A DNA stretch of 64,000 bases from a virus: positions 1 to 64,000 of IMG/VR virus record IMGVR_UViG_3300020214_000005; one strand, given 5' to 3'. The translations under genes and the position numbers were made by a program. Positions 32,859 to 51,842 of this stretch are shown piece by piece (positions within the stretch are counted from its first letter, which is position 1; every line of letters starts with the position of its first letter). The notes beneath the pieces are model-generated. The model was not told the DNA's origin and searched no databases. It worked only from the letters and a program-made list of their open reading frames with translations.

Positions 32859-33120
32859 ACTGACGCGCGTGGAGGACCTGGTGGGCGCGCGCGAGATCGC
32901 CGAGAGGCTGAACTGCACCAGCAGCAAGACGGTGCACGGGTGGCACAAGCACCACGCGGACTTCCCGGTCCCGGTCAAGCAGCTGTCCATGGGCATCATC
33001 TGGGACTGGAGGGAGATCGAGCAGTGGCACGAGAGGTTCGAGCGCAGGAAGACCGCCAACTGGAGGACCACCGGGCGGACGAGCTACAAGGACGCGGGAG
33101 TCCCGGCGGTCGCCAGCTGA
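32845..33120 (+). CDS. AlpA/excisionase-like HTH protein
   Basis: DLVGAREIAERL...TVHGW....DFPVPV...IWDWREIEQW. Confidence 0.75.
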   Translation: MEETELTRVEDLVGAREIAERLNCTSSKTVHGWHKHHADFPVPVKQLSMGIIWDWREIEQWHERFERRKTANWRTTGRTSYKDAGVPAVAS

Positions 33121-33176
33121 TGGAGATCCTCACGTTCTTCACGTTCTGCGTCTTCGTGGTCTGGCTCTGGAGCTAG
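33120..33176 (+). CDS. 18-aa hydrophobic peptide, copy 1
   Basis: MEILTFFTFCVFVVWLWS; TGATG overlap; two paralogs. Confidence 0.7.
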   Translation: MEILTFFTFCVFVVWLWS

Positions 33177-33367
33177 AACAGCGACTCCTGCGATGCGACC
33201 ACCCTGCCGCTCTCGCAGCATATCCTGTGCGCGTAGATGAACCTCTCCTGGACCCCCATGGCGCCGCTCGTCTTGCCCACCGGGAGCCAGCACTCCACCC
33301 TGCGGGCCACCCCGGAGGCCTTCACGTCGGCGATTACGATGTCGCAAAAGAAGCACCTGTACTGCAC
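33173..33367 (-). CDS. Small Cys/His protein
   Basis: CFFC...HRIC. Confidence 0.5.
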   Translation of the reverse strand: MQYRCFFCDIVIADVKASGVARRVECWLPVGKTSGAMGVQERFIYAHRICCESGRVVASQESLF

Positions 33368-33393
33368 ACCGAGACTATAACGCGAGGTAGGAA

Positions 33394-33699
33394 ATGGAAG
33401 AGAAAATGACGCCCGAGGAGATCCTGCAGGACCTCGTCGCGCTCCTGCGCGAGAGCTACTGGCACGGGCCGGTGACGGGGGCGGAGGCGATGCGAGACAT
33501 ATGGTCGGAATTCGCCGACAACAGGGAGGGCTTCGAGGAGACGGCGCGCGACATGTCCGTCAGCGTCGACGACTTCCACCGGGCCGCGAACGTGCTGGCG
33601 GACTGGCTGAGGACCAACGGGATGATGGACAGGAGCCCGCTGGGGGCGTCGGCGGACATACGCAAGGAAAAGCTGAAATTCCCGGAACACAGCAAGTGA
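33394..33699 (+). CDS. Hypothetical protein
   Basis: 101 aa, RBS GAGGT. Confidence 0.7.
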   Translation: MEEKMTPEEILQDLVALLRESYWHGPVTGAEAMRDIWSEFADNREGFEETARDMSVSVDDFHRAANVLADWLRTNGMMDRSPLGASADIRKEKLKFPEHSK

Positions 33700-34216
33700 G
33701 CACCCCGGGCCCCGGGGCGTCGACGCGCCGTTCCTGAGTCCAGCCCGCCGCGGACGAAACCCGGGAAACGACGAAAAAGGCGAAAAAGGCGAAAAACGGG
33801 ACCGCGGAGCCGCGGGCCGAGAAGATCAAAAAGGCCGCCGACGGCCAGGACGCACCGTTCGCGCCGTTCCGGAGTCCAGCCCGTCGCGCCGACGCGCGGA
33901 AGCCCCACCAGACCTTCGCCGGAAGCCGTCTCGACACCGGTCGCGACGCACGCGCGACGAAACCAGCGAAGACGGGACCGGGGAGCGCCGCGTCCCCCGA
34001 AGACGGGACCGGGGAGCGCCGCGTCCCCGGGATGTCAGTCGACGTGCGAAAAACGCCCAGGTTACGATCGACTCGGCGCGCGCCGTTCCGGAGTCCAGCG
34101 GGAGTGCGCGGAAGAAAGAAACCGTCGGGACCGCGGAACGGGGCGCGCCGCGCGCGCTTGCCTTGGTATCCCGACGGTGGCGGAAGAGCCGGTGGCCGCC
34201 GGGGCGGCCCGGGGGG

Positions 34217-34642
34217 TCAGAGGTACTTCGCCACCGAGTTGTAGGTGCTCGCGCTCACCGTCTGATCGTCCGTGAGCCTGAGCACCCGGATCGCCTGCGA
34301 AATCTCCTCGACCTCCCGCCTGTACTCGTAATCTTGGTAGGTCTCGGGGGCTTCCGGCTCCTCCGGGAGCGACCCGGCGGGCAGCAACACGACCACGTTG
34401 AACCCGATCTTGTTCCCGCGCTCCTTCGACCTGTCGTAGTAGGCCAGCCTCGACGCCTCCCCGACCTCGACCTTGCCCGCCCTGACGAGCTTGACGACCG
34501 CGCGGTTGTACGCCTCGATCGCCTTGTCGTACTCGGCCTGTTCCCTTCCTCTGTTCTTGTAGCGGGCGTGCCGCTCGGCAAGACCCTTCTCGAGGTGAGA
34601 AATGAGAACGCTCGTTTTCACCTTTACCCTCACTGTGGACAT
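34217..34642 (-). CDS. Hypothetical protein
   Basis: GGGAGG RBS, own promoter. Confidence 0.75.
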   Translation of the reverse strand: MSTVRVKVKTSVLISHLEKGLAERHARYKNRGREQAEYDKAIEAYNRAVVKLVRAGKVEVGEASRLAYYDRSKERGNKIGFNVVVLLPAGSLPEEPEAPETYQDYEYRREVEEISQAIRVLRLTDDQTVSASTYNSVAKYL

Positions 34643-34667
34643 TGCTGCCTCCCTTTTCCTGCCAACC

Positions 34668-34722
34668 ACGCTACGGACGAACCTAGCACCTTACAACCCA
34701 CAAGGGTGTGATCCACGTCACG
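34668..34722 (-). promoter_or_regulatory. Promoter plus CRP-like box
   Basis: TTGTAA-17-TAGCGT; TGTGA-N6-TCACG at 34707-34722, 10 bp gap. Confidence 0.7.
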
Positions 34723-34868
34723 CGGCGGGCCGGGGGCGGCCGGGGCGGGTTGCGCGCGGGGCGCTCAGCTCCGGAGTCCAGCGCGTCGGGGCGCGGCGGC
34801 GACCGGGGGCGGGACCGCGGATTTGCCGCGGGACGGCACGGCCGTACGCCGGTGGCCGCCGGGGCGCG

Positions 34869-35096
34869 CTATTGCTCCGGGTCCCCCAGCGCGAACTGCT
34901 CGAGGGCCGCCATCGGGTTGAGGCCCTCGGTGAAGGCGAGTTGCTCCCAGTCGACCTGCGCGTCCCCGGGCGAGTACCCGCCCCCGCGGATCGAGTCGAG
35001 CATCCCCCGGTAATAGTGGATCGCCCGCTCCAACTCGTGGGCGAGGTCCTCCAGGTCCTCCTGTTGCTTCTCGGAGAGAGGGTTGTCGTTTTCCAT
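34869..35096 (-). CDS. Small acidic protein, leaderless
   Basis: TTGCAA-17-TAGCGT, ATG 7 nt later. Confidence 0.7.
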   Translation of the reverse strand: MENDNPLSEKQQEDLEDLAHELERAIHYYRGMLDSIRGGGYSPGDAQVDWEQLAFTEGLNPMAALEQFALGDPEQ

Positions 35097-35317
35097 GCCC
35101 CGAACGCTATCGCCACTTCTTGCGAGTTGCAACCAACAAGATGCGGCCCTCGGGTAGATCCGCGCCGCGCACGCGGCGGCGACCCGCGGCGCGCTCCGGA
35201 GTCCAGCGCGTCGCGCGCGTCCCCGCGGAGGGTTGCGGCGCCCGTCACGGGTCGTCGGGACCGCGGAACGAAACGCGCCGCGGGGGGCTTGCGGGTGCGA
35301 CGGTGGCGGATGGGCCG

Positions 35318-35815
35318 CTAGCCCATCGAGTGGACGATGTCCAGGATCCGCGACTCAATCGCGTCGCGGAGGTCGCCGCGACCGTCGGTCTCGACGAGCG
35401 GGTCGCCCGGGTCGTCGGCGAAACGCATCACGGAGGTCATCCGGTCCAGGCCCTCGATCACGATGCTCAGCCTGACCTTCCGCCTCCCGGGGTGGTCGGC
35501 CGGGGCGGTGTCGGGCAGGTCGCCAGGGGCGGCCCAGCCGTGGGACACCAGGACGAGGGCGCAGCCCGCGCGGACGGCCTGGGCGAAGTCGGGGTGCTCG
35601 ATCCCCGCGTATGGGTCGGGCGCGCAGCCGTCGTACGCGATGCCGCCCTCGAGTGCCCTGTACAAATGGAAGAAGCCGGACTGCCTGTCGGGCTCGACGC
35701 CGGCCTCGCGCATCTGGGCGAGGAGTGCCTCCTCGTGCGCGGGCTCGACCCTGGGCCTGACCACGTCGTGGATGATCGCCTCCACCGCGCGGGCGAAACT
35801 CGTGTCGCGCCCCAC
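35318..35815 (-). CDS. Hypothetical protein
   Basis: 165 aa, coding bias. Confidence 0.7.
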   Translation of the reverse strand: MGRDTSFARAVEAIIHDVVRPRVEPAHEEALLAQMREAGVEPDRQSGFFHLYRALEGGIAYDGCAPDPYAGIEHPDFAQAVRAGCALVLVSHGWAAPGDLPDTAPADHPGRRKVRLSIVIEGLDRMTSVMRFADDPGDPLVETDGRGDLRDAIESRILDIVHSMG

Positions 35816-35816
35816 C

Positions 35817-36224
35817 TCAGGCCCCCACGTGGTGCAGGCCCGCGAGCTCGTCGAAACGGGCGACGAGGTTGGGGACGTAGAGCCTGACGCGGCCCTGGTC
35901 GTGCCCCCACCAGGCGAAAACCTCCACGTTCGGGCCGTCGTGGCTGTCCCACGCGACCTCGCACCGCGGGCCCCCGCAGGTGCGCAGCACGATCACGGTG
36001 GCCCCGTGGTCGTAGCCCCTGACGTCCACCCTCACGGAGACGTCCAGGACGGTCTCATTCACCCACAGGGAGAACGGATCCTCGCCGTGGTCGACGAGGT
36101 CGTCCATCTCGAGGGACTTCAGCGCGTCGGCCGCCCCCTCGCCCCCGGACAGGGCCGCGTCCAGGGCGCGGACCTCGTCCGCGATGTGCTGGGCGTACTC
36201 CTGGGCCTCGTTCTGTTCGTTCAT
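35817..36224 (-). CDS. Hypothetical phage protein
   Basis: GGAGG RBS; LRTCGGP...AWWG motif. Confidence 0.75.
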   Translation of the reverse strand: MNEQNEAQEYAQHIADEVRALDAALSGGEGAADALKSLEMDDLVDHGEDPFSLWVNETVLDVSVRVDVRGYDHGATVIVLRTCGGPRCEVAWDSHDGPNVEVFAWWGHDQGRVRLYVPNLVARFDELAGLHHVGA

Positions 36225-36249
36225 AAACCCCTCCATTCCTAGGCCAGGA

Positions 36250-36343
36250 ACGCTACCCGGCCGCCTTGTTGGTTGCAACCGTTAAAGGTGTGAAAAACGT
36301 CACACACTTAAAGGTTGCAAGGGGCAAGGCGGGCTCGTAGCGT
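36250..36343. promoter_or_regulatory. Symmetric divergent promoters sharing a central CRP-like box
   Basis: TTGCAA-17-TAGCGT in both directions; TGTGA-AAAACG-TCACA at 36289-36304, 10 bp from each -35. Confidence 0.8.
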
Positions 36344-36349
36344 GGCGGT

Positions 36350-36622
36350 GTGCAAATCTCCACGATCACGGACAGCCTCTCCAGCAGGTACGCGGCGACC
36401 GACGAGGTCGCCGTGGCCTGGTGGGACAGGGAATGGTTCGAGCGGATGCTCGACCAGAAGCTCTCCGACGAGCAGTGGGACGCCGTGCTCCTGGCCGCCG
36501 AGAAGGTGCTGGAGTTCTCCAACCTGGGCGACTGGATGACGGACGCCGCGGCGGACACCATCTACGAGCTCGAACGGCGGCGGATGACCGACAAGAAACC
36601 AAGGAAGAAACGGAGCAAATAG
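36350..36622 (+). CDS. Hypothetical protein, leaderless
   Basis: GTG 6 nt after -10. Confidence 0.7.
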   Translation: MQISTITDSLSSRYAATDEVAVAWWDREWFERMLDQKLSDEQWDAVLLAAEKVLEFSNLGDWMTDAAADTIYELERRRMTDKKPRKKRSK

Positions 36623-36623
36623 A

Positions 36624-36887
36624 ATGACCAGGAAGCGCAAGACCACCTACTACGTGTACCACGCGGGAACGGACACGCTCATCGACGCCGCCGACGGAAC
36701 GTTCGTTTTCAGCGACGAGGACTTCAGCGACGAGGAGCGAGAGGCACTCGACGACAACCCGTACCTCGCCAAGGACGTGGGCGTGCGGCTCACGACGCTC
36801 ATCCGCGCCTACGAGAAGCTCTGCGCCGAGGAGGCCGCCCGGGCGAAGAGGACCAGGAAGAAGAACGGGAAGAAGGGGAGGAAATAA
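36624..36887 (+). CDS. Hypothetical protein
   Basis: Operon context. Confidence 0.7.
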   Translation: MTRKRKTTYYVYHAGTDTLIDAADGTFVFSDEDFSDEEREALDDNPYLAKDVGVRLTTLIRAYEKLCAEEAARAKRTRKKNGKKGRK

Positions 36888-37435
36888 TGGGACTCGACCA
36901 ATACCTCTACGCGAGGAAGCACATCTCCGGGTACGAGTTCTACGGCGAGAAGGCCAGGGCGGAGTTCGCCGCGGTGAAGGAGGCGGCCGGGATGTCCGCG
37001 GTGAAGGCCGACGGCGGGATCGGCGTCGGCCTCAACGGCAGCGTCTCGTTGTGCGTGGCGTACTGGCGCAAGGCCAACGCCATCCACGGATGGTTCGTCA
37101 GGGAGTTCGCCCGGGACGGCGTGGACGACTGCCGCGAGATGTGGATCCCCCGCGAGGGGCTCGTCTCGCTGCGCCACGTCTGCGAGGAACTGCTCGCCGA
37201 CAGGGACCCGCAGAAGGCCGCGCAACTGCTGCCGCCCACGGACGGGTTCTTCTTCGGGTCGTACGAGATCGACGACTGGTACTGGGGCGACCTCTCGCAC
37301 ACCGTGTCGCAGATGAACTCGGTCCTGAACGACTGGTTCTCGGCCGGCCGCAAGCCCGCGGGCCTCAGGATCGAGGCCGAGGAGACGACCGCCCCCCTGG
37401 GCGACATCGACTTCTACTACCAGGCGAGCTGGTGA
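36887..37435 (+). CDS. Conserved phage protein
   Basis: MGLDQYL...YWRKANAIHGWF...LLP..DGFFFGS...YYQASW. Confidence 0.8.
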   Translation: MGLDQYLYARKHISGYEFYGEKARAEFAAVKEAAGMSAVKADGGIGVGLNGSVSLCVAYWRKANAIHGWFVREFARDGVDDCREMWIPREGLVSLRHVCEELLADRDPQKAAQLLPPTDGFFFGSYEIDDWYWGDLSHTVSQMNSVLNDWFSAGRKPAGLRIEAEETTAPLGDIDFYYQASW

Positions 37436-37439
37436 CGCG

Positions 37440-37706
37440 ATGGGACGCATCTCGACCGAGGGAATGATCGAGGCCGGCGACGAGCTCGGCCTGCCCAGGC
37501 GGCAGCAGCTGCTCTGGCACCTGTCGTCCAACCACTACCCCCCGGTCCACCCCAGCTTCGCGGGGACCGCGGAGGAGGCGATACGCCTCGCCGATCTCGG
37601 CGAGTGGGACGCCGAGGTGACGATGCCCAACGGCCTCGTGCGCACCGCGGCGTTCATAGTCGAGGGCCTCCACCTGAAGCCCTTCCTGGCCGGGGAGGAG
37701 GACTAG
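37440..37706 (+). CDS. Hypothetical protein
   Basis: WHLSSNHYPPV motif, operon context. Confidence 0.7.
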   Translation: MGRISTEGMIEAGDELGLPRRQQLLWHLSSNHYPPVHPSFAGTAEEAIRLADLGEWDAEVTMPNGLVRTAAFIVEGLHLKPFLAGEED

Positions 37707-37722
37707 CCGTGAGCCGGGGGCG

Positions 37723-37899
37723 TCAGAACCCCTTGGTCCGGTTCCTCCTCGCGTAGACGAAGTTGTGCAGCGAGCAGCACGGGTTGCGGTTGTACGAGTT
37801 CAGGACCACGTCGCAACCGGGCTCGGCGCACGTCCTGGGGCCGTCGCCGTACTTCCTCCTGTGCCTCCAGTCGCGGTGGTACTTCGCATCGTGTCCCAT
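37723..37899 (-). CDS. Small Cys/His Zn-binding protein (58 aa)
   Basis: Own translation: RTCAEPGCDVVLNSYNRNPCCSLH. Confidence 0.6.
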   Translation of the reverse strand: MGHDAKYHRDWRHRRKYGDGPRTCAEPGCDVVLNSYNRNPCCSLHNFVYARRNRTKGF

Positions 37900-37974
37900 C
37901 AGGCACCCATCCTAGCGGGAAGACGCGCCCGCGCGCCGTTCCGGAGTCCAGCGCGCCGCGGTAGGATGGTGGTC

Positions 37975-38048
37975 GCCGGCGTAGCCCAACCGGGAGAGGC
38001 GCGAGACTTAAAATCTCGAGAGTGAGAGTTCGAACCTCTCCGCCGGCA
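37975..38048 (+). tRNA. tRNA-Leu(UAA), short variable arm
   Basis: GCCGGCG/CGCCGGC acceptor stem; CGAGA-CTTAAAA-TCTCG anticodon arm; GTTCGAAC T loop. Confidence 0.9.
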
Positions 38049-38197
38049 CGACGCGCGCCGTTCCCGAGTCCAGCGCGCCGGGCCGCCGACGGCGGCCGGC
38101 CGCTCGGGACCGCGGAGCGGGACGACGGGGAACGGGACCGCGGAGCCCGCCGCGGGAGCCCCGGGGGGCTCCGTATCCGACGGTGGCGGATGACCCG

Positions 38198-38425
38198 TCA
38201 CCAATGGCGCCAGGTCCTCCCCCATCTCGGGGACGTCGAGCGCAGGTAGTCGGCCGCCCCGGGCAGCCTGCCGCCGATCACCTCGGGCAGGACCACGTGC
38301 ACGAGCAGGTCCACCACCCTCACGAACCTGCACGGGGAACCGAAGCGCGTCCTGCTCACGGGGAGCAGCTCGTGGCCCCGGGCCAGCAGCAGGCGCGTGC
38401 TGACGCGGACGAAGATCCCGATCAC
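38198..38425 (-). CDS. Small protein, paralog of 421-663
   Basis: RFGSPCRFVRV and YLRSTSPRWGR shared. Confidence 0.8.
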   Translation of the reverse strand: MIGIFVRVSTRLLLARGHELLPVSRTRFGSPCRFVRVVDLLVHVVLPEVIGGRLPGAADYLRSTSPRWGRTWRHW

Positions 38426-38464
38426 GCCCCCGCCGATCGCATCCGTTGGTTGTCCATCCCCCGA

Positions 38465-38558
38465 ACGCTACCTGGCCGCCTTGTTGGTTGCAACCCACAA
38501 GGCTGTGAAGAATGTCACACACTTAAAGGTTGCAAGAGGCAAGGTGGGATCGTAGCGT
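38465..38558. promoter_or_regulatory. Second copy of the symmetric divergent promoter with CRP-like box
   Basis: TGTGA-AGAATG-TCACA at 38504-38519; near-duplicate of 36250-36343. Confidence 0.8.
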
Positions 38559-38565
38559 GGTGGCC

Positions 38566-38805
38566 ATGGAAACAAAGTACCCAGACATAAACATCCCGAT
38601 GGTCGGCGAGGACGGCAACGCCTTCTCGATCCTCGGCCGCATCAGGCGCATCATGCGACGCGCCAACCTGCCCGACTCCGAGTGGGAGGCGTTCCGCGCC
38701 GAGGCGACCTCGGGCGACTACGACAACCTGCTCGCGACCGTCATGCGATGGTTCGAGGTGGATCGCGACCTGGACGACGACCACGAAGACGAGGACTACG
38801 AATGA
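38566..38805 (+). CDS. Conserved small phage protein, leaderless
   Basis: GEDGNAFSILG...EATSGDYDNLL. Confidence 0.8.
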   Translation: METKYPDINIPMVGEDGNAFSILGRIRRIMRRANLPDSEWEAFRAEATSGDYDNLLATVMRWFEVDRDLDDDHEDEDYE

Positions 38806-39200
38806 GCACGAAGCTCCAGGCCGACTACGAGAAGCACGACGCCTACGACCTGGACGAGGGCTGGGCGGCGACCCGCGAGCACGCGGAGAACGCGATCCTC
38901 ATCGCGTTCGACGGCTGCCACAAGATCTACCTCGCCATGGACGAGGCCCAGGCGAGGTGGTTCCGGGACAACTACAACGGCCGGGGCTGCGACGACCGCA
39001 CCTTCGCCGGCTCGCCCGACCAGATGTTCGACCAGCTCACCGAGTGGTACGAGGATTCCTGCTCGCTGCGGTTCATCCAGGCGGTCTGGAAGAACGAGGA
39101 CGACCCGAACGCGGGCTTCGTTTCGCTCATCGACCAGGGCGCGGGCGACCCGAGGGACGAGTACGAGGACGACGAGGACGACGAGGACTACGATGGCTGA
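38802..39200 (+). CDS. Hypothetical protein
   Basis: ATGA overlap; AFDGCHKIY...WYEDSCSLRFI. Confidence 0.75.
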   Translation: MSTKLQADYEKHDAYDLDEGWAATREHAENAILIAFDGCHKIYLAMDEAQARWFRDNYNGRGCDDRTFAGSPDQMFDQLTEWYEDSCSLRFIQAVWKNEDDPNAGFVSLIDQGAGDPRDEYEDDEDDEDYDG

Positions 39201-39456
39201 CCCGGTGCTGTACCACGGCACGCCCGTGGCGTTCCCGAGCCGCACGCGCAAGGTTCACCCCACGCCGACGACGCAGGACACGGGCGGCTACCCGCCGGGT
39301 TGGCGCATCGCGCACGCGACCAGCGACATGGCCGAGGCGCGGCGATACGGCGCGGTCGTCTACGAGGTCGCATTCGACGAGCACACGCAAGAGGGGTACG
39401 GCGACACCTGCTACTTCAGCGAGCGCGGGTTCCGCATCGTCAGGCGGGTGTCCTAG
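39193..39456 (+). CDS. Small protein, possible ADP-ribosyltransferase fold
   Basis: LYHGT...HATSD..EARRYG..VYEV. Confidence 0.45.
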   Translation: MADPVLYHGTPVAFPSRTRKVHPTPTTQDTGGYPPGWRIAHATSDMAEARRYGAVVYEVAFDEHTQEGYGDTCYFSERGFRIVRRVS

Positions 39457-39849
39457 GTGGGCACCCCGACCCGCGAGGAGTTCCGGGCGTTCCGCGCCCA
39501 GCGCCCCGACGCCATGGGCGTGCACGACGACATGAGGACGGAGTACGGCCCGGTGGGCCCGCTCCTCCCGGCCGTCCACGGCGCCGACGGGAGGCCGACC
39601 AAGGAGACCATCGAGGCGTACGAGAAGCTGAGGGGGGTCTGCGCGAGCCGCTCGGCGGTCGGATCGGTCTGGACCGTGTACGAGGAGACCGCGGATTCCG
39701 CGGTCACCCGGAGGGACCGCGTCTATGCGCGCAACAAGCTCGAGCTGAACAGCCACAGCGACAGGATAAAGGTCCTCGGATGGGTCGTCACCGCCAAGGC
39801 ATCGGGCCCGGTGTACCAGGTCTACCTCCTCGACAGGGACGAGCTCTGA
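39457..39849 (+). CDS. Hypothetical protein
   Basis: Operon context. Confidence 0.65.
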   Translation: MGTPTREEFRAFRAQRPDAMGVHDDMRTEYGPVGPLLPAVHGADGRPTKETIEAYEKLRGVCASRSAVGSVWTVYEETADSAVTRRDRVYARNKLELNSHSDRIKVLGWVVTAKASGPVYQVYLLDRDEL

Positions 39850-39850
39850 C

Positions 39851-40285
39851 ATGACCGACTCCGACATGATCGACGCCGGGAGGGAGAACGAACTCGCGTC
39901 CCTGGTGCGGACCGTCCACGGCGAGAACGCCGTGGAGTACCTCGTCGGCGCCCTCGCGTCGGTGACGACGGGGCCCCAGCTCGACCACCTGCTCCGCCAC
40001 CTGGCCGGGGCGATGACGCGGCCCCTCGCGCCGGCCGAGGCCGAGCGCCTGATCAGGGCGATATTCGACGGGGACCTCGTCGCGGACGACGGGGCGGCGA
40101 CGACCGACTACCGGATCCGCGTCGCGTTCACCGCGAGCCGCCCGCTCACCAAGCACGAGATCGACTCCCTCAGGGACTCCATCGCCACCCGGGTCGGGGA
40201 CCCGAGGTCCTGGCGACGACAGGAGCGCGGGACGTACGCCGAACCAGGGTTCGGCGTGAGCGACGTCGCCGTGGACGTGCGATGA
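39851..40285 (+). CDS. Two-domain hypothetical protein
   Basis: Halves resemble the 31804 and 40440 proteins. Confidence 0.7.
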   Translation: MTDSDMIDAGRENELASLVRTVHGENAVEYLVGALASVTTGPQLDHLLRHLAGAMTRPLAPAEAERLIRAIFDGDLVADDGAATTDYRIRVAFTASRPLTKHEIDSLRDSIATRVGDPRSWRRQERGTYAEPGFGVSDVAVDVR

Positions 40286-40377
40286 GCAGGGTGACCGACG
40301 CGCTCGCCCGCCTGTGGGGGATCGTGACGACCGTCACCGAGTGGGTGCTGTCGCTGGTCTGGGAGGGGATCTTCTGA
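40282..40377 (+). CDS. 31-aa Trp-rich peptide
   Basis: ATGA overlap; MSRVTDALARLWGIVTTVTEWVLSLVWEGIF. Confidence 0.5.
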   Translation: MSRVTDALARLWGIVTTVTEWVLSLVWEGIF

Positions 40378-40404
40378 CGACGGTGGCGGATGTGCCCTTA
40401 GGGG

Positions 40405-40433
40405 TTGCAACCGGCCAGGTCGGCCGATAGGAT
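40405..40433 (+). promoter_or_regulatory. Promoter
   Basis: TTGCAA-17-TAGGAT. Confidence 0.65.
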
Positions 40434-40439
40434 GTTCCA

Positions 40440-40796
40440 ATGAGAAGAAAAAAGGAGGCCCCAGTGGCCAAGAAAAACGAGAAGAACAAGAAGAGGCAGC
40501 TCTCGAGGCGCGTGAGGGACCTGGAGAACGAGTTCTCCGCCATCATGCGGGCCCTGCAGACGCACACGCAGCCGATCGTCGAGCACAAGACGCCCAACAC
40601 GTACGTTGCGACCGTCTCGTTCTCGGCCGACCGCAAGCTGACGGCCGAGGAGATCGACAGGCTCGCGTTCGCCATCAGCGTGCAGGTGGAGGATCCCTCC
40701 GGCCTCGACGACGAGAAGCGCGCCGAGTTCTCCACCGCCCAGGTGAGGACGATCATCAAGCGCACGCGCAGGCGACGACGCGCCGTCGGGAAGTAG
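40440..40796 (+). CDS. Hypothetical protein (alternative start GTG at 40464)
   Basis: Leaderless ATG or AAGGAGG RBS. Confidence 0.7.
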   Translation: MRRKKEAPVAKKNEKNKKRQLSRRVRDLENEFSAIMRALQTHTQPIVEHKTPNTYVATVSFSADRKLTAEEIDRLAFAISVQVEDPSGLDDEKRAEFSTAQVRTIIKRTRRRRRAVGK

Positions 40797-40801
40797 CCGG
40801 C

Positions 40802-41317
40802 ATGGGGTACCACATCGAGGCGACGGAGATCTCCGTGCGCATCAAGACCCAGGACGAGGACGCCGCCTTCAGGGCGATCTGCGCGTTCAACGCCGAGTGC
40901 CCGCCCACGATGAAGCGTGGCGGCACCGTGGGCGAGGACGGCAAGGAGGAGAAGTGGTTCTCGTGGATGCGGGCGGACTTCTCCGAGTACGCCGACCTGC
41001 GCGAGGTCCTGCGCGAGATGGGGTTCTCGCTCGACGCCTGGGACGGATGGATGGTCCTCACCGGGTGGCACGGCGACAAGCGCGGGCAGGAGGACCTCCT
41101 CATGGAGTCGATCGCCCGCTGGGTGGAGCCCGGCTCGTACGTCAACTGGATCGGCGAGGACTGCGCCCGGTGGCGCTGGGAATTCTCCGACGACAGGCTC
41201 TGGGTCCGCGCCGCGACGACGGGGTGGGCCACCGAGAAGTCGACCCCGACCGAGAACCACATGGCCGGCATCATCCGCGCGGAACGCTTCGCGCGGCTGG
41301 CGGCCAGGGAGGCCTGA
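40802..41317 (+). CDS. Conserved phage protein
   Basis: MGY...KWFSWM...DKRGQE...PGSYVNWIGED..RWRWEF. Confidence 0.75.
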   Translation: MGYHIEATEISVRIKTQDEDAAFRAICAFNAECPPTMKRGGTVGEDGKEEKWFSWMRADFSEYADLREVLREMGFSLDAWDGWMVLTGWHGDKRGQEDLLMESIARWVEPGSYVNWIGEDCARWRWEFSDDRLWVRAATTGWATEKSTPTENHMAGIIRAERFARLAAREA

Positions 41318-41373
41318 TGTGGACGCTGCAATTTTTCGCGTTCTGCGCGTTCGTCGTCTGGCTGTGGAGCTGA
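41317..41373 (+). CDS. 18-aa hydrophobic peptide, copy 2
   Basis: MWTLQFFAFCAFVVWLWS. Confidence 0.7.
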   Translation: MWTLQFFAFCAFVVWLWS

Positions 41374-41395
41374 CGGTGGCGGATGATAGGGTGAA

Positions 41396-41632
41396 ATGAT
41401 GGAGAAAACGCTGAACAAGGCAAGGACCTTCACGGCCGCGGACAAGAGGAAGCACCGCTCGGTCGTCGGAAGGGTGGGGTTCGTCGCGGTGGACGACATC
41501 TCGGTGGCCGTCAAGGTCGTCGGGGAACGCTTCAGGTACGGCAGGCTGGACCTCCAGGTCAAGCCGCTGGCCGGCAGGGGCAGCCGATGGGTCGAGTTCC
41601 ACAACGTGCACCTCTCGAAGAAAGGGGAATGA
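41396..41632 (+). CDS. Small beta-rich (SH3-like) protein
   Basis: V.VKVVGERFRYGRLDLQVKPLAGRGSRWV. Confidence 0.65.
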   Translation: MMEKTLNKARTFTAADKRKHRSVVGRVGFVAVDDISVAVKVVGERFRYGRLDLQVKPLAGRGSRWVEFHNVHLSKKGE

Positions 41633-41751
41633 TGGAGTTCTGGATCAACGAAATCGCAATCGCCGCGATCGCCGCCCTGGCGGCGGTGGTCGTGGCGGCG
41701 AAGGCCTGCGTGCGCATATTCGCGCGCGGAGAAAACGAAAACGACGCGTAG
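41629..41751 (+). CDS. Small membrane protein (40 aa)
   Basis: ATGA overlap, TM helix. Confidence 0.55.
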   Translation: MMEFWINEIAIAAIAALAAVVVAAKACVRIFARGENENDA

Positions 41752-41773
41752 ACCCCCTTCGCGGCCATTTCGA

Positions 41774-41809
41774 CCCCGGGTACCGAAAGGCGCCCGGGGT
41801 TCTTTTTTC
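41774..41809 (+). terminator. Intrinsic terminator
   Basis: CCCCGGGTACC-GAAA-GGCGCCCGGGG followed by TTCTTTTTT. Confidence 0.8.
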
Positions 41810-42580
41810 ATACCAAAACGCCCGGGCGCGGGTACCTGCAGTCGCTGCGCGGCGCGCTCCTGAGTCCAGCGGGCGCCGCGCGGGGTACCGAAACGGCCGG
41901 CCGGCGCCACCCGGGTACCGAAACGCGCGCTCCTGAGTCCAGCCCCGCGATCCCCCGAAGAAACGACCCCTCGGGACCGCGAAACGGCGCGCGGGCCGGG
42001 AAACGAGCCGAAAACGGGACCGGAATTCGCCGCGCGCGAGTCGCCGGTTGTCCAGGTCTTCCGACGGTGGCGGATGAGGGGCCGGGCCGGGGGCCCTCGT
42101 CGCCGACGGTGGCGGATGGACGAGCCGCCGCCCGGGCAGAAAGGAGAAAAGACCCGGGCGGCGACCCTGATAGCTCGGGAAAGGGGGGTGATCACCGAGC
42201 GATGACGATTGTAGCCCGGGACGCCCGTCCCGGCCGCAACCCCCCGGAGGGCGACCAAGGTCCTTGACGAAGGGGGTCTGGGCGCGCTAGAAACGTCTGA
42301 AAAAAGTTAGTCGTGATGCCTCCCCGACCCCGTGGACGACGGGACGGTCGGGTCGGTGGGCTGTCGTACTGGAACGACGAAGGCGTCGTTCCGATACGAC
42401 GACGGACTCCCGCGTTGCGAGGGACGTCCGGTAAGTACAACTTGTGGTACGTACTCTCTACAAGGGGTCCGCGCGAGGCGTTCGCACGATGCGGTCGGGA
42501 GTCTGCCCCGGGGGCGGCCGATCGCCCTTGACCGCGCGGCCGGGGCGGTGTACGATGTCCGCGTGCAGGGGGTGCTATTC

Positions 42581-42952
42581 GTGACCGAACCGGGGCGTGG
42601 GAGAGCCGGCAAGTACGCGCGGCGCAGGAAGAAGGCCGCCGCGGCCGGCGCCGGCGACGTGATGCGCGTGTGGAACGAGTGGGTGCGCGTGCACCGGCCC
42701 GGGCAGGAGAACAGGGTCAGGCTGACCGAGGAGCGCGAGGAGAGGATCTCGTGGGCCGTGGCCACCTACGGCGCCGACGCGTGCGTCGAGGCGATAGAGG
42801 GCTGCAGGCTCAGCCCGTTCCACCAGGGCGACAACGACCGCCGGCGCAAGTACGACGACGTGGAGCTCATACTGCGCGACGCGGCCAAGATCGAGAGGTT
42901 CCGCGAGATCGCGAGGGAGCACCGCGCGCGGCCGAGGGGCACCGACTTCTGA
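42581..42952 (+). CDS. Putative replication initiator/organiser-like protein
   Basis: LTEEREERI...AIEGC..SPFHQGDNDR..Y..VELILR...IERF; promoter TTGACC..TACGAT upstream. Confidence 0.5.
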   Translation: MTEPGRGRAGKYARRRKKAAAAGAGDVMRVWNEWVRVHRPGQENRVRLTEEREERISWAVATYGADACVEAIEGCRLSPFHQGDNDRRRKYDDVELILRDAAKIERFREIAREHRARPRGTDF

Positions 42953-43431
42953 TGGACCGCGAGTCGGCGGGCAGGGTCGTCGTGGCCTTCTACAACGCCT
43001 GGAACGAGCGCATCCCCAAGGGGACCGACTGGGACGAGCTGCTCTCCACCTGGGCCCGCTTCTTGTCCGACGTGAGCGTCGAGGAGGCCCGCCACGCCTA
43101 CCGCCGCCTCGTGGCCCAGGACTCCAACTGGCTCCCGAGGCCCGGCACCGCGCGCCGGGTCGCGATCGCGTCGAGGGGCGGGCAGCCGCCGAGGGAGTGG
43201 GAGGCGTGGGCGCAGCTCCGCAGGATCGCCGAGGCCTCGTACGCCGGCGTCGGCTCGGGCGAGAAGCTCCACGCCGTCGTCTCCGCCACGCTCGCCTCGC
43301 TCGGCGGCAGGGACGCGCTCGAGCTCCACACGAACGGCGACCGCGAGCTCTTCTTCCGCGCGTACCGCGAGAAGCTCGCCGACTGGGAGGCCGCCGAGTA
43401 CGGGGTCCCCCCGGCGGAGGGGAGGGCGTAG
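42952..43431 (+). CDS. Putative helicase loader/inhibitor (G39P-like)
   Basis: TW..FLSDV..EEA..A...L......WLP.PG..R. Confidence 0.5.
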   Translation: MDRESAGRVVVAFYNAWNERIPKGTDWDELLSTWARFLSDVSVEEARHAYRRLVAQDSNWLPRPGTARRVAIASRGGQPPREWEAWAQLRRIAEASYAGVGSGEKLHAVVSATLASLGGRDALELHTNGDRELFFRAYREKLADWEAAEYGVPPAEGRA

Positions 43432-43443
43432 TAGCCTCGCCCC

Positions 43444-43629
43444 GTGGCGAACGGGAGAGGCGGCAGGCCGGCCAAGAGGGCCGACGGGGACTGGGCGACG
43501 GTGACCGTGCGCGTGCCCGCCTGGTTCAAGAACCACCTGATCGAGGTGTCCGAGGGCTACGACATGTCGATCACCGACTACGTGAAGGCCCTGGTGCTCA
43601 GGGATGCCCCGCCGCCCGACGCCTCCTAG
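43444..43629 (+). CDS. Ribbon-helix-helix protein
   Basis: TVTVRVPAWFK..L......MSITDYVKALV. Confidence 0.7.
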   Translation: MANGRGGRPAKRADGDWATVTVRVPAWFKNHLIEVSEGYDMSITDYVKALVLRDAPPPDAS

Positions 43630-43945
43630 GGGCGACGACGACCCCCACCAGGTCTGCGTGCGGATCCCGGGCTGGCTGAAGGGCAGGGTGCTGGCGATCT
43701 GCGAGCGCGACGGGATCTCCGTCAACGCGTTCGTCTCCAACGCGATCCGCGAGTCCGAGAGGGCGGGCCGCGGGCTGCCGTCCCCGCCCGAGGGCCGTCC
43801 CAACCCGGGGATAGCCGAGGTGCTCGCCGCCTACGCCACCGGGGGGAGGGTCGTGAGACCCTGCGGGAGGACCAGGTGCGACCAGAGGCTGGTGCGCCTG
43901 GACGGGCGCGAGTTCTGCGACGAGTGCGGGATCAGGGTCGGATAG
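43604..43945 (+). CDS. RHH protein with C-terminal Zn finger
   Basis: VRIPGWLK...GISVNAFV..AI; C..C...CDEC. Confidence 0.7.
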   Translation: MPRRPTPPRGDDDPHQVCVRIPGWLKGRVLAICERDGISVNAFVSNAIRESERAGRGLPSPPEGRPNPGIAEVLAAYATGGRVVRPCGRTRCDQRLVRLDGREFCDECGIRVG

Positions 43946-43949
43946 ATCG

Positions 43950-44135
43950 GCCCGCGCGCGTAGTTCTATTTTTTCTTAGCCTCGCATAAATTAGCCCGCG
44001 CACGCGCGGTCGCAATTTTTTTTAGCCGCGATTATTCCCGGTCTCGCATAGATTAGCCCGCCCGCGCGCGGCCACGATTTTTTTTCGCCGCATAAATTAG
44101 CCCGCACGCGCGCGGCTACGATTTTTTTTCGCCGC
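43950..44135. repeat. Three imperfect tandem repeats CGCATARATTAGCCCGC..GCGCGG...T-run-GCCGC
   Basis: Units near 43984, 44045, 44089. Confidence 0.85.
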
Positions 44136-44286
44136 TTCGGGCCGGCCGCTTTCCCTCCCCCGCCGATCCGGGCAGGCACGCCTGGCAAACACAAAATCCC
44201 GGCCCGGGGCTCGAACCGGCCCCGCGGCCGTTCGCGCGGGCGTTCAGGCGGCCATCCTGCGTTCGCGCGGGCGTCCCGCATCCGCG

Positions 44287-44652
44287 TCACTCGCCCCACA
44301 TCTGGCTGAGCGTCGGCCTCGTCGGCGCGATCCCCCTGCGCTTCTGCTCGGCGGCCAGCTGCCTCGAGGTCAGGCCGGCCCACACGCCGTGCATGTCGGC
44401 GGCCGGGAACTCCAGCGCGTAGTCGAGGCACCTCGGCCGGACGGTGCAGTGCGCGCACATCTCGCGCGCCTCCTGGATGTAGCTGATGTCCTTGTGCCCC
44501 TTGGGGAACATCTTGTCCGTCTCGCCCCGGCACCTGGCGTTCTTCATCCACCCGTATCTTGGTATATCGGGCGCCCGCGGCCCGTCGGCCCGTTTCCCCC
44601 CGCCCCCGCCCGTCGGCCGCTTGCGCTCCCGGGCGTCCCTCTTCCTCGGCAT
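44287..44652 (-). CDS. whiB: WhiB-family transcription factor
   Basis: W...ARC...CAHCTVRPRC..YAL...GVWAG. Confidence 0.9.
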   Translation of the reverse strand: MPRKRDARERKRPTGGGGGKRADGPRAPDIPRYGWMKNARCRGETDKMFPKGHKDISYIQEAREMCAHCTVRPRCLDYALEFPAADMHGVWAGLTSRQLAAEQKRRGIAPTRPTLSQMWGE

Positions 44653-44702
44653 GTCGCCTCCCTGGGGGGCGAGATTACCGGATGGCTACTAACTAATTGG
44701 CG

Positions 44703-45356
44703 CTACTGCTTGCGCCTGTTTTTCCGGGGGACGTTTTTCCTGCGGCTACTTCCCGCGCGCCTCTTCTGGTGCTGGGTGGCGACGTGGAACGGCGCCCCCG
44801 TCCCCGGGTCGAACCTGCTCGCGACCGAGAGCGCCTTGAGCACCGAGTTGCGCGCCGTCAGCACCGACCTCCCCCAGCCCGTGGCCGTCAGCGCCCCCAG
44901 GGCGTAGTGCGCCCCGCTCCCGACGGCGTACAGGCCCGAGGCGTCCGAGATCCAGCTGTAGTCCCCGTCTATCGGGTAGGCCCTGCCGTTCACCGCCACT
45001 ATCAGCTCGCTGTCGAACTCCGTCTTCCCCGGGTGGTCCTTGATCACGGGGGCGTACCCCGACTTCTCCAGCACCTCGCGCAGGGACGGGACGAACTCGG
45101 CCGAGACGAACCTGTCGAGCCCCTGCCCCGAGAGCGTGGGCCTGGGCGCCGGCGGGTTGAAGTTGTGCGACAGCACGTTGATCGCCCTGAGGTCGCCCGC
45201 CGCCCCGATCAGCCACGGCCCGTTCTGGACGACCTTCCTCTGGCTCTCGGCGAGGACGTGGATCTCCGCCCTGCCCTCGCCGTCGGTGACCGAGATCCGC
45301 GAGTCCCAGCCCACGATGCACCAGCCGTCGCCCTGGACGGCGACTATGGTCGTCAT
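44703..45356 (-). CDS. N-terminal Thr protease (proteasome beta/HslV-like)
   Basis: M-TTIVAV...DSR..K...GAAG...AVGSGA.YALGAL...D..TG. Confidence 0.85.
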   Translation of the reverse strand: MTTIVAVQGDGWCIVGWDSRISVTDGEGRAEIHVLAESQRKVVQNGPWLIGAAGDLRAINVLSHNFNPPAPRPTLSGQGLDRFVSAEFVPSLREVLEKSGYAPVIKDHPGKTEFDSELIVAVNGRAYPIDGDYSWISDASGLYAVGSGAHYALGALTATGWGRSVLTARNSVLKALSVASRFDPGTGAPFHVATQHQKRRAGSSRRKNVPRKNRRKQ

Positions 45357-45465
45357 CGGTCGCTCCCGCGCCGGTGCCCCCTTGGCGTCGCTGGGACGGT
45401 GCCACAAGGAGGGCTTTGAGGGGTGCGTGTCTGGTCGGTGGACAAGTGCGTTCCTCGTTCCCGGC

Positions 45466-46701
45466 CTAGGACGCCTTGACGACGGGGGGCTTGGTCTTCC
45501 GCGCGTCGTACTCCCTGCCCCTGAACATGGCGTAGCCGTCGTAGATCGTGACCACCTCGTAGCTGAAGAAGTTCTTCCCCGTCTCCTCGTAGGTGACGAG
45601 CCCGACGCCCTGCTGCCAGTCCTCCACGACGGTCTTGGGGCGCCCCCAGGCGTCCACCCCGCCCTTGGTGGACGGCACCGCGCCGTCTATGCGGGCGAGC
45701 GTGCCCGGGCTGGCGGCCATGATCGTGCGGGCCCCGTCCCAGTCGTGGCGGGTCCTGTAGGCCAGCTCGATCCTGTGGATGTGCCCGTAGATCACCGAGA
45801 GCTTCTGCTCGTTGAGGTAGATGTGGGCCGTCGAGCCGCGGGAGCGGACCCTGGTTCCGTGGATGCAGGCGAGCTGGTTGTTCAGCAGGTAGCGCCCGGC
45901 CGGGTAGCCGCTCTCGAACCCCACGCCGTACTCCTCCATCCTGCAGAGCGACGGGATCGACATGTCGGGCCACGCCTTCGGGGTGTTCCCCTTGGTGATG
46001 CCGAAGGCGGCCTTGGCGTTGTCGAGGATGTAGTTGGTGAGCCTCTCCTCGTGGTTGCCGGCCAGCCACACGATCTTCGCCTTCGGCGCCGCCGACCTGA
46101 GCTCGGCGCACAGGGTCGTCGCCCTGTCGATCGACGCCTGCGTCGTGAGCGCGAACGCCGGGCTGAGCCTGTACTTGCCGAACTCCGGCAGGTCCAGGTT
46201 GTCGCCGAGCAGGACGATCTGGTCGGGACGTATATCGTTCACCATCGACATCATTATCGCGATAGCTTTCTCGTCGTGCGTGGGCACGAGTTCGCCGTCG
46301 ATGTCCCGGAAATATCCGATCTGTATATCGGGCACGATGATGGCGGTCTTCTTGTCCGAAGCGTTCCTCGGTTTCACCTCGGACTTTTGTATTTGCACCG
46401 GGGGGCCCGGCTTGGGCAGTTCCCACTTCGGGCCCTCCTCCCACGCGGGGGAGAACTGGATCGCCTGCAGGTCGTGCACCTGGAAGTCGCCCTCCGCGTC
46501 CTTCGTGACCTGCTGGTAGATCGAGACCTTCTTGATCGACCCGATGTCGGATATGTCGATGCCCTTGGCGCGGATCATCTCCTCGATGGCGTTGAGGATG
46601 CGTCTCGATTTGGTGGCGTCGGCGGCCTTGTCCTTCATCCGCTTCATCCCCTCGGCCAGTCTCGCGTTGTCGGGTCTGACCTTTTTCATATTCCCTCCCA
46701 T
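45466..46701 (-). CDS. Calcineurin-like metallophosphoesterase
   Basis: PDIQ, LGDNLD, GNHE, HG, GHIHR, WQQG. Confidence 0.88.
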   Translation of the reverse strand: MGGNMKKVRPDNARLAEGMKRMKDKAADATKSRRILNAIEEMIRAKGIDISDIGSIKKVSIYQQVTKDAEGDFQVHDLQAIQFSPAWEEGPKWELPKPGPPVQIQKSEVKPRNASDKKTAIIVPDIQIGYFRDIDGELVPTHDEKAIAIMMSMVNDIRPDQIVLLGDNLDLPEFGKYRLSPAFALTTQASIDRATTLCAELRSAAPKAKIVWLAGNHEERLTNYILDNAKAAFGITKGNTPKAWPDMSIPSLCRMEEYGVGFESGYPAGRYLLNNQLACIHGTRVRSRGSTAHIYLNEQKLSVIYGHIHRIELAYRTRHDWDGARTIMAASPGTLARIDGAVPSTKGGVDAWGRPKTVVEDWQQGVGLVTYEETGKNFFSYEVVTIYDGYAMFRGREYDARKTKPPVVKAS

Positions 46702-46728
46702 GGTTTCCTGAATGCCCCCGCGTTTTTT

Positions 46729-47058
46729 TTATTGGCCGAACTTCTCGTCCAGCCCGCACTTGTCCTCGTGGGCGCACGAGCAGACCCTCGCCCGGTAGTC
46801 GTAGACCGTCTGGCGGGCGATCCTTATCCCCGACGCCCGCATCTCGCGGATTATGTCGCTCGTGGTGGTTATCTGGTCGTTGAGCACGTCGTACAGGCAC
46901 TGGCTGGTCTCGTCGTCGAGCCTCTTCAGGATCTTCGCCATCGGGCACACGAGGTGCGTGCATTCCTTCTCGGCGTTCGTCCCTATCTTTTTCAGCCTCT
47001 GGGAGAGCCTGTCTATTTTCCGGTCTATCTTCAGCGTCTTCTTCGGGTCTTTGGCCAC
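46729..47058 (-). CDS. Hypothetical protein
   Basis: GGAGGAG RBS; C...R..CSC. Confidence 0.7.
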   Translation of the reverse strand: MAKDPKKTLKIDRKIDRLSQRLKKIGTNAEKECTHLVCPMAKILKRLDDETSQCLYDVLNDQITTTSDIIREMRASGIRIARQTVYDYRARVCSCAHEDKCGLDEKFGQ

Positions 47059-47118
47059 ATCTCCTCCTCCGCGGCAACCTTATACCACGGAGGGGCGTTC
47101 GCACAATAGTATAAGTCG

Positions 47119-47556
47119 GTGACCTCAGGGGAATACAGAAAGCACTCGATAGACGACGCCCTCGCGAAGGCGATAAGGGACAGCGTGGGCGACGACGACG
47201 AGGCGCGCCGGCTCGCCCAGAAGGTCATGAAGCAGCTGGACAAGCACGGGTTGATCTACTACTCGGCCCCCGACGAGATCAGCCTGCTCAGCGCCGCCGG
47301 CCGGCTCCTCGTGGCCCTGGCCGAGACCCCCAACGCGACCCAGCGGTCCCTCGCCGTGTTCCTGGGCGTGAGCGAGGGGGCGGTCCGCAAGTCGGTCGAC
47401 CAGCTCGTGGCGGCGGGCCTGGTGGCAAAGACAAAAGTCAAGAACAGGAACCTCCTCGTGATCGTCCCCAGGAAGGTCGCCGAGACGAGCGATATCAGGA
47501 GGTTCGGGGCGCTGCTCAGGGTCGCGTCGGCGGGCGGGGACGACGAGCTCTTCTGA
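47119..47556 (+). CDS. Winged-HTH DNA-binding protein
   Basis: ATQRSLAVFLGVSEGAVRKSVDQLVAAGLV. Confidence 0.75.
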   Translation: MTSGEYRKHSIDDALAKAIRDSVGDDDEARRLAQKVMKQLDKHGLIYYSAPDEISLLSAAGRLLVALAETPNATQRSLAVFLGVSEGAVRKSVDQLVAAGLVAKTKVKNRNLLVIVPRKVAETSDIRRFGALLRVASAGGDDELF

Positions 47557-47567
47557 TATCTTGGGGC

Positions 47568-47741
47568 ATGCAACTGCTCTGGTTCCTCATCGGACTGCTC
47601 GTCGGTCTCGTCCTGGATTTCTTCCTCGTCGTCTGCTTGCTCCGGCCCATCATGGCGCGCGTCGCGGAACTGGAGCGCTCGAATCTCTGTCTCCACGGGC
47701 GGATCCGGGGGGAGGTGGCGCCCGAACCGGACCACAACTAG
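47568..47741 (+). CDS. Small membrane protein (57 aa)
   Basis: Own translation MQLLWFLIGLLVGLVLDFFLVVCLLRP... Confidence 0.55.
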   Translation: MQLLWFLIGLLVGLVLDFFLVVCLLRPIMARVAELERSNLCLHGRIRGEVAPEPDHN

Positions 47742-47827
47742 TGTGACCAAAGTCACACGATTTTTTTGGTAGTTATTTGAAAAAAATCCCCTTACGGGTT
47801 GCAATGCCGAACGCCGTGCCCTAGCGT
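47742..47827 (+). promoter_or_regulatory. CRP-like box plus promoter
   Basis: TGTGA-CCAAAG-TCACA at 47742-47757; TTGCAA(47799)-17-TAGCGT. Confidence 0.7.
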
Positions 47828-47864
47828 GTCCCATAAGTTATCCAACTACATAGGAGAAGAGGAC

Positions 47865-48278
47865 ATGAAAGAGAAGCAGAAGAAACCGGCCAGCGCGATG
47901 CAGGCGGCCCGAGCGTTCGCCGACGCCAAGTCGTGCTACGACGAGGCGGTCAAGACGAAGAAGCTCGCCGAGCAGAACTTCATCGAGGCGTGCGCCAAGG
48001 AGGGCGTGGAGTTCTCGGTGATCACCAACGACGCCGGCGTTTCGTCCAAGGTGTTCGTGCGCCGCACGATCCGCACCAAGGTCATCCTGGACAAGCTGCG
48101 CAAGCTCGTCAAGCCGGCCGTGCTCAAGAAGCTCGTAGTCGAGGAGCTCGACCAGAAGCTGGTCGCCAGCGCCATCAACATGAACATACTCGACCAGGCC
48201 ACGGTAGACCAGGCCAGCGAGGCCACCACCGTCGTCTCGGTCATGATCGCCGAGCTCGAGTCCAAGATCGACGCCTGA
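47865..48278 (+). CDS. Hypothetical protein
   Basis: GAGGA RBS, coding bias. Confidence 0.75.
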   Translation: MKEKQKKPASAMQAARAFADAKSCYDEAVKTKKLAEQNFIEACAKEGVEFSVITNDAGVSSKVFVRRTIRTKVILDKLRKLVKPAVLKKLVVEELDQKLVASAINMNILDQATVDQASEATTVVSVMIAELESKIDA

Positions 48279-48334
48279 TGCAGCCGATCTTGTTCTTCGC
48301 GTTCTGCGGGTTCATCGTCTGGCTGTGGAGCTGA
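48278..48334 (+). CDS. 18-aa hydrophobic peptide, copy 3
   Basis: MQPILFFAFCGFIVWLWS. Confidence 0.7.
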   Translation: MQPILFFAFCGFIVWLWS

Positions 48335-48666: not shown

Positions 48667-48750
48667 CCGAGTAGAAGAGCGGCCCCCGGGGTCTCCCTCC
48701 CTTTTCCGACCTCGGGGACCGGCTTCACTATATTACGTCAACGTAATTCC

Positions 48751-48824: not shown

Positions 48825-48827
48825 CAG

Positions 48828-51820: not shown

Positions 51821-51842
51821 CTCTCGGGACCGCCCGGTGCCG

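Follow-up and report, generated by a model that had tools for sequence, protein, structure and literature searches.

Can reading frames of 18 codons, set at the junctions of unrelated phage genes, be genes in their own right, and what could three such peptides do in one phage? The question is raised by a stretch of 64,000 nucleotides (the window), positions 1 to 64,000 of IMG/VR virus record IMGVR_UViG_3300020214_000005, an uncultured phage fragment estimated to be ~65% complete; the phage itself is about 100-150 kb in size. An earlier note on this DNA had described three paralogous micro-open reading frames (micro-ORFs), and we find them on the plus strand exactly as described: c1 (33120..33176, 18 codons and TAG), c2 (41317..41373, 18 codons and TGA) and c3 (48278..48334, 18 codons and TGA). 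In all three, the A of the ATG start is at the same time the last letter of the TGA that ends the gene before it (TGATG); FFxFCxFxVWLWS is the core common to the three peptides, and their alignment contains the synonymous differences CTC/CTG, TTC/TTT and TAG/TGA. At 57 nt the frames fall below the usual cut-offs of gene callers, and the three upstream genes are unrelated, as had been claimed (BLASTP among their proteins gave no pair below E = 0.1). Comparative evidence makes it very probable that ORFs of the c1-c3 type are real genes missed by gene callers. For their role we favor, at a probability of roughly 0.55 for the whole explanation, trans-acting, membrane-embedded early peptides that would be jointly active or would act on one common partner.

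The three copies stand alone in their genome. A degenerate 33-nt pattern of the shared 3' part, allowing up to three mismatches, matches the c1-c3 sites only in the window, against a chance expectation of 0.00 (100 shuffles), and c1-c3 are the only copies in the entire 97,935-base record. An unbiased filter over the whole genome (ORFs of 14-24 codons whose ATG overlaps a stop, with a grand average of hydropathy (GRAVY) ≥1.3 and no charge after residue 3) returned c1-c3 and just two unrelated matches from the 98 kb. At the DNA level the copies are direct repeats of ~40 bp with ~85-90% identity.

Collections of viral, metagenome and genome sequences were scanned with a search pattern, as the earlier note had proposed for phage sequences, and 25 copies of the 18-codon family were recovered on 17 viral or metagenome contigs, so that the family is conserved in a group of uncultured lake phages. 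Some of these contigs are near-identical assemblies of one phage, and the copies reduce to 16 different DNA sequences encoding 15 different peptides. Chance matches were many; they came from low-GC DNA, did not have the ATG and stop structure, and were sharply set apart from the real matches. All 16 distinct sequences keep the ATG, the 18 codons, the stop and the xTGATG overlap with zero indels, and frame-disrupting variation, which the note had named as an observation that would speak against a peptide family, is found in none of them. When the loci were retrieved through flanking proteins instead of the pattern, the outcome was the same, and one variant (L067), which the first pattern was unable to match, was recovered through the flanking protein alone. 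The orthologs of c1 (on L080/L089 and L096) have equal length and the same xTGATG start, c2 has six distinct orthologous sequences, with Leu16 encoded by CTG in all, and c3 has seven, L067 included. The only match of the peptide in the genome collections is a 3.9-kb contig binned in a Deltaproteobacteria metagenome-assembled genome (MAG) from Lake Tanganyika, a placement that we read as a binning artefact.

Three observations together strongly support the note's claim of a real peptide family, in the sense that the micro-ORFs are coding genes. First, as described above, start, length and stop are kept in the orthologs, and so is hydrophobicity. Secondly, GC at codon positions 1, 2 and 3 of the micro-ORFs is 0.36, 0.44 and 0.91, and the genes of this genome have a third-position GC (GC3) of ~0.9; positions 1-2 are thus held T-rich against the GC pressure of the genome, and position 3 follows that pressure. 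Thirdly, there is a signature of purifying selection. Residues F9, C10, W15, L16 and W17 are invariant, the third base varies in every one of the four-fold degenerate core codons (positions 8, 11, 14 and 16), and the ratio of nonsynonymous to synonymous polymorphism (pN/pS) of the core is 0.35 for c2 and 0.48 for c3. The constraint is on apolar character: no copy has a charged or amide residue at residues 6-18, and none of at least 15 replacement events in this segment produced such a residue or a stop, an outcome with P ~0.011 given that ~26% of single-base replacements would do so.

These figures also bear on the idea that the open frame is incidental and the repeats are a DNA or RNA element: a site bound by a protein, a linker for recombination where modules meet, or a structured RNA. 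The copies are indeed direct repeats, they stand where the lineages differ in gene content, and the parallel base changes discussed below could equally reflect a binding protein shifting its specificity. We nevertheless hold this to be very improbable, in view of the period-3 GC, of a stop that is always kept without a single indel in the 16 distinct sequences, and of an ATG that is fixed five codons from the core although those codons are unconserved. The paralogs of the distant relative G009, moreover, share amino acids and not codons, which together with the period-3 GC rules out a pure DNA motif. An RNA structure was rejected as well: the consensus alignment folds at -1.05 kcal/mol with zero compensatory pairs, single-sequence folds of the loci are no better than shuffles (z-scores +0.1 to +0.6), and no Rfam family overlaps the micro-ORF loci.

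The three genes lie within a 16-kb block of small early-type genes, and comparison between lineages indicates that, beyond what the earlier note had proposed, the gene to which each is coupled is not fixed and has been exchanged. The gene upstream of c1 (32845..33120, plus strand) encodes a 91-aa DNA-binding, excisionase-like protein with matches to phrog_597 and phrog_66 and a GC3 of 0.96. In lineage B it is missing: a contiguous, syntenic 19-kb sequence there has the three sites in the same order and with similar spacing, but not this gene. In lineage B and in L096, the direct stop-start partner of c1 is the ortholog of another gene, Y (32517..32858, plus strand; identified by tblastx and ORF translation). 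The window has the 91-aa gene in the interval from Y to c1, and it is this gene's stop on which c1 restarts here. A cassette in which the 91-aa gene and the peptide move jointly was also considered and rejected, the 91-aa gene having no relative in viral contigs.

At c2 the upstream gene (40802..41317, plus strand) encodes a 171-aa viral hypothetical protein (phrog_38862 match), whose Atlas neighbours are all viral hypotheticals and which is 63% identical in relative G002; at the c2 site of the relative G008 a different gene precedes the micro-ORF. The conserved parts of this site are the downstream gene dn2 (41396..41632, plus strand; 78-aa protein) and the 21-nt spacer in front of it, CGGYGGCGGAWGATAGGRTGA (41374..41395, plus strand), which is near-identical in lineages A-D, recognisable in G009 and kept better than the end of the upstream gene. 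The spacer may hold a ribosome-binding site and/or a -10-like TAGGGT for a leaderless dn2 start. The gene upstream of c3, up3 (47799..48278, plus strand), probably starts at ATG 47865 and then encodes 137 aa; it has 20 homologs of 132-157 aa at 56-93% identity, and searches of Pfam and PHROG assigned it to no family. An XRE-type helix-turn-helix (HTH) gene (48442..48666, plus strand; Pfam HTH_3, 2.9e-13) follows 107 nt after c3, and the gene after c3 differs in three lineages.

From these comparisons the coupling mechanism is conserved and the partner is not. A fixed functional pairing with the upstream protein was rejected, the partner being swapped at c1 and at the c2 site of G008. The exchange of partners with retention of the coupling argues for autonomous peptides that ride on any translated early gene. 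As an observation on the c3 junction itself, lineages B, C, D and F have a gene 2-4 nt after c3 (L066/L067 from 3510) that in part resembles the 130-aa gene of the window (39457-39849), a similarity that suggests a duplicated or moved gene.

Relatives retrieved through up3 and dn2 indicate how deep the trait reaches. G008 and G009 (54-68% identity in up3, genome GC ~0.55) do not have the 18-residue family; each has two other apolar micro-ORFs with stop-start overlap (TAATG, ATGA or TGATG). One stands at the c2 site and comprises 19 and 21 codons, respectively. The second, of 16 and 17 codons, directly follows the XRE-type HTH gene, so that the ortholog of the HTH gene near c3 is here the gene that carries the stop-overlapping micro-ORF, and a terminator hairpin comes next. 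The unbiased filter returned essentially these micro-ORFs only in each relative genome. In farther relatives (dn2 44-47% identity, GC 0.46-0.48) dn2 overlaps its upstream gene directly and there is no micro-ORF, nor was one found in distant relatives of the 171-aa gene; the sequences available for G001, G008 and G009 do not extend over the c1 site. The micro-ORF trait is thus a clade-specific invention, in which size (16-21 residues), apolarity and coupling are kept over depth and the sequence is not. Across the clade we also noted a conserved GC-rich hairpin with a T-rich tail after the XRE-type HTH gene (window 48670-48730; L243 ~9830-9920; L244 ~9900-9990); in G008 and G009 the hairpin stands after the micro-ORF, not after the HTH gene.

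The position of the micro-ORFs, always between cistrons with stop-start overlap and often with a gene within 2-27 nt downstream, invites an explanation in cis: the nascent peptide could stall the ribosome at termination, or the ORF could relay coupling from one cistron to the next, the free peptide having no role. In the 18-residue clade the strongest conservation lies in the C-terminal 13 residues, which would be nearest the peptidyl-transferase centre. TnaC, the Erm and Cat leaders and SecM are regulatory leader or arrest peptides, and they resemble the present case in being short ORFs that precede or separate cistrons and are most conserved near the C-terminus in a close clade. However, here there is no conserved stall motif, and no conserved RNA switch or target gene downstream was found at the loci; the downstream gene differs between lineages for c1 and c3, and the copy after the HTH gene of G008 and G009 precedes a terminator hairpin, not a gene. 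The stop context is not conserved either. The C-terminal motif is not kept in the wider clade, which has four endings, whereas the ribosome tunnel is conserved, and the variable positions remain apolar although a tunnel effect needs no apolarity. We consider an action in cis unlikely for these reasons.

A further use of the junction would be a -1 ribosomal frameshift that appends the hydrophobic stretch to a fraction of the upstream protein as a C-terminal membrane anchor. Relative to the upstream gene the peptide lies in the -1 frame, which in the window is open for many codons before c2 and c3. A stop in the peptide frame precedes the c3 ATG by 2 codons in lineages B and F, though, and by 6 codons in lineage C, which leaves no room for a slippery site. 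These stops near the ATG in several lineages rule out such an extension; in addition, no X XXY YYZ heptamer precedes any copy and the ATG is invariant in all of them, and we give the idea next to no credence.

The second result that goes beyond the earlier note is that the copies appear to co-evolve within genomes. At the C-terminus, copies of one genome are closer to each other than to their positional counterparts elsewhere. Lineage A ends in WLWS and lineage B in WLWT; G008 has VWFS and IWFA, and G009 has ACVG and CCVG. All three copies of lineage B carry Met13 and Thr18, the Thr codons being ACC, ACA and ACC, and the Leu16 codon between these two positions stays paralog-specific (CTG in 6/6 distinct c2 sequences, CTC in 3/3 c1 sequences). 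Leu7 occurs in both c2 and c3 of lineage D, on two contigs of one sample series, and the two copies probably come from the same phage. The two peptides of G009 have their last six residues in common except one, with three of the five shared codons differing synonymously, and G008 has the same within-genome pattern at the C-terminus.

Parallel selection on a shared motif fits these data, and wholesale recent gene conversion does not. For the co-variation in the 18-residue clade by itself a rough estimate gives P ~0.01; the case for co-evolution therefore rests mainly on the recurrence of the pattern in three clades. By simple arithmetic at 100 degrees per residue, positions 4, 7, 11, 14 and 18 would fall on one helical face, and the co-varying positions 7, 14 and 18 are three of these. 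Since the lineage-specific C-terminal motif changes in parallel in all copies, we infer that the copies act jointly.

A motif that is lineage-specific, common to all copies of a genome and different between lineages is also what would be expected of communication (pherotype) peptides, used whole or after C-terminal trimming, with a per-genome code read by a cognate receptor as in the leaderless communication peptide (LCP), SHP/Rgg and arbitrium systems. The micro-ORFs do adjoin small HTH regulators. LCPs are unprocessed, highly hydrophobic aromatic/aliphatic 8-10-mers encoded by tiny ORFs, and even close relatives use different codes (PMC10518010). The likeness to LCP and SHP/Rgg therefore extends to ultra-small ORFs, to hydrophobic peptides that are unprocessed or C-terminally derived, and to a code varying between close lineages. 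Against it, the peptides described here have 16-21 residues (theirs 8-10) and no export signal, come in two or three copies and are coupled to unrelated genes. The neighbouring HTH proteins have 74-145 aa and no peptide-binding repeat domain, and a search of the 98-kb record, which is ~65% complete, for the TPR-type receptor domains RGG_Cterm and RNPP_C found neither. Signalling of this kind, moreover, is known from Firmicutes and is not known from Actinomycetota, the phylum of the probable host. We accordingly doubt that the peptides are communication signals. A broader formulation, which we put forward tentatively as a minority view, is that the copies form a matched set with a C-terminal recognition code, either as a hetero-oligomeric membrane device or as a pherotype-like signal for a putative receptor. 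If true, such a code would be the first system of its kind in Actinomycetota phages, drawn from the smallest class of genes.

The explanation that we prefer, trans-acting early peptides of the membrane, would work as follows. Ribosomes ending the upstream gene would reinitiate at the overlapping ATG of the TGATG, and peptide dosage would therefore follow the early operons, each peptide being made in fixed ratio to an early operon whichever gene precedes it. An 18-mer would be too short to leave the ribosome before termination and would be released whole. It would then partition into the cytoplasmic membrane as a minimal single-span or membrane-embedded helix; the composition of the micropeptides (GRAVY 1.0-2.0, with 5-8 aromatic residues of 18) makes a membrane location a reasonable inference. 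There the two or three copies of a genome would act together in trans, either packing against each other or binding a single partner of host or phage origin, and this partner would differ between phage/host lineages. Downstream, the peptides might perturb the membrane, control a membrane protein, or serve in exclusion or counter-defence. The roles put forward in the note, namely modulation of a host membrane protein, superinfection exclusion or toxicity, are conjectures.

Several points weigh against this scheme. Translation and membrane location are predictions from sequence. Eighteen residues in total barely span a bilayer, the peptides contain neither Lys nor Arg, so that no flanking basic residue is present to set the topology (nor a site for trypsin), and an aromatic content of 28-44% is unusual in a transmembrane helix. 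The core pN/pS values are just moderately under 1, and that of c1 is not below 1, three c1 sequences being too few to show it. Short gene-conversion tracts or a receptor-matched signalling code could also explain the shared motifs. We looked for a conserved phage membrane partner in the operon and found none, and no host transmembrane segment with the motif occurs in five Ilumatobacteraceae genomes. Mimicry of a host transmembrane segment was likewise rejected, exact matches in those five genomes being zero and near-matches not exceeding the control. The single small transmembrane protein encoded inside the c3 operon, a 57-aa candidate partner with an N-terminal transmembrane segment (47568-47741, plus strand), was discarded because it is absent from the relatives. 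The gene is found in this phage only, and the corresponding position in the relatives is non-coding or tRNA sequence.

The closest parallels to the peptides that we envisage are small membrane-active proteins of bacteria. Ibs toxins are hydrophobic type I toxins of enterobacteria with 18-19 residues, and like the peptides described here they are almost wholly apolar, have several paralogs per genome and are overlooked by gene callers; membrane action is expected in both. The two are not known to resemble each other in sequence beyond composition, and they differ in setting. Ibs toxins have a dedicated repressed mRNA, whereas the micro-ORFs are coupled by stop-start overlap to a preceding gene, are phage-borne in an actinobacterial context, and have no evident antisense RNA partner, with no Rfam match or stable structure at the loci. 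MgrB, AcrZ, KdpF and SidA are small single-span regulators that bind a larger membrane protein. They share with the micropeptides the form of short apolar helices with lineage-specific sequences, but have 29-50 residues and flanking charges, are single-copy and usually have separate genes. Catalogues of small genes in microbiomes and phages reportedly contain conserved small ORFs, many of them predicted to be transmembrane and many on mobile elements; what sets the present case apart is that the gene is triplicated, that stop-start overlap is obligatory and that the copies co-vary within genomes. We therefore place the micropeptides among the tiny hydrophobic peptides of bacteria and mobile elements, with no named family to which they belong.

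Genes of 18 codons are invisible to standard annotation; on comparative evidence alone, such genes can be conserved, multiplied and co-evolving, and the case concerns phages of an abundant, uncultured group of freshwater bacteria. Three peptides that can be synthesised, together with natural variants differing at two or three positions, are a cheap test object suited to asking how very short apolar peptides act in infection. The search recipe, namely stop-overlapping hydrophobic micro-ORFs at syntenic operon junctions, could reveal similar hidden genes elsewhere.

The host is probably a freshwater acIV Acidimicrobiia bacterium, since the tag and the sequence of the phage-encoded transfer-messenger RNA (tmRNA) match those of Ilumatobacteraceae/Acidimicrobiia. 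The tmRNA (window 51441-51823, plus strand; 103 bits vs RF00023) has the tag ANKQFALAA and is also present in the relatives G002, G001 and G008. The tag pattern occurs in ~90 species genomes, mostly MAGs of Ilumatobacteraceae/freshwater Acidimicrobiia (acIV) and some of Planctomycetaceae, and in full-length comparison the phage tmRNA has ~81% identity to those of Ilumatobacteraceae. A betaproteobacterial host, our first guess, was abandoned when the tag search indicated acIV Acidimicrobiia instead. The window further encodes tRNA-Leu(TAA) (37975-38049, plus strand) and tRNA-Arg(CCT) (48751-48825, plus strand), whose codons are uncommon in genomes of high GC; the relatives retain tRNA-Arg(CCT), and in G001 a further gene, for tRNA-Gly(TCC), lies immediately before up3.

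Besides the genes already named, the 16-kb block encodes DUF4314 and DUF3846 proteins, a MarR-like protein, a replication-initiator-like protein, an SNF2 helicase and a C5 methylase next to the excisionase-like DNA binder and the XRE-type HTH protein. Megablast of 18 kb against a phage database gave no match. Two parts of the window have an unusual composition. Over ~12.5 kb (17700-30300) codon-position GC gives no coding signal, and the plus strand is purine-rich, with a GC skew of ~+0.2 and an AT skew of ~+0.2. At positions 1-4000 the plus strand is nearly A-free (AT skew ~-0.8) at 68-73% GC. Finally, the minus strand of the late region carries giant ORFs of 4972, 1869 and 2845 codons (G000 59894-74812, 76240-81849 and 87862-96399), the first of which reaches the window at 59894-64000.

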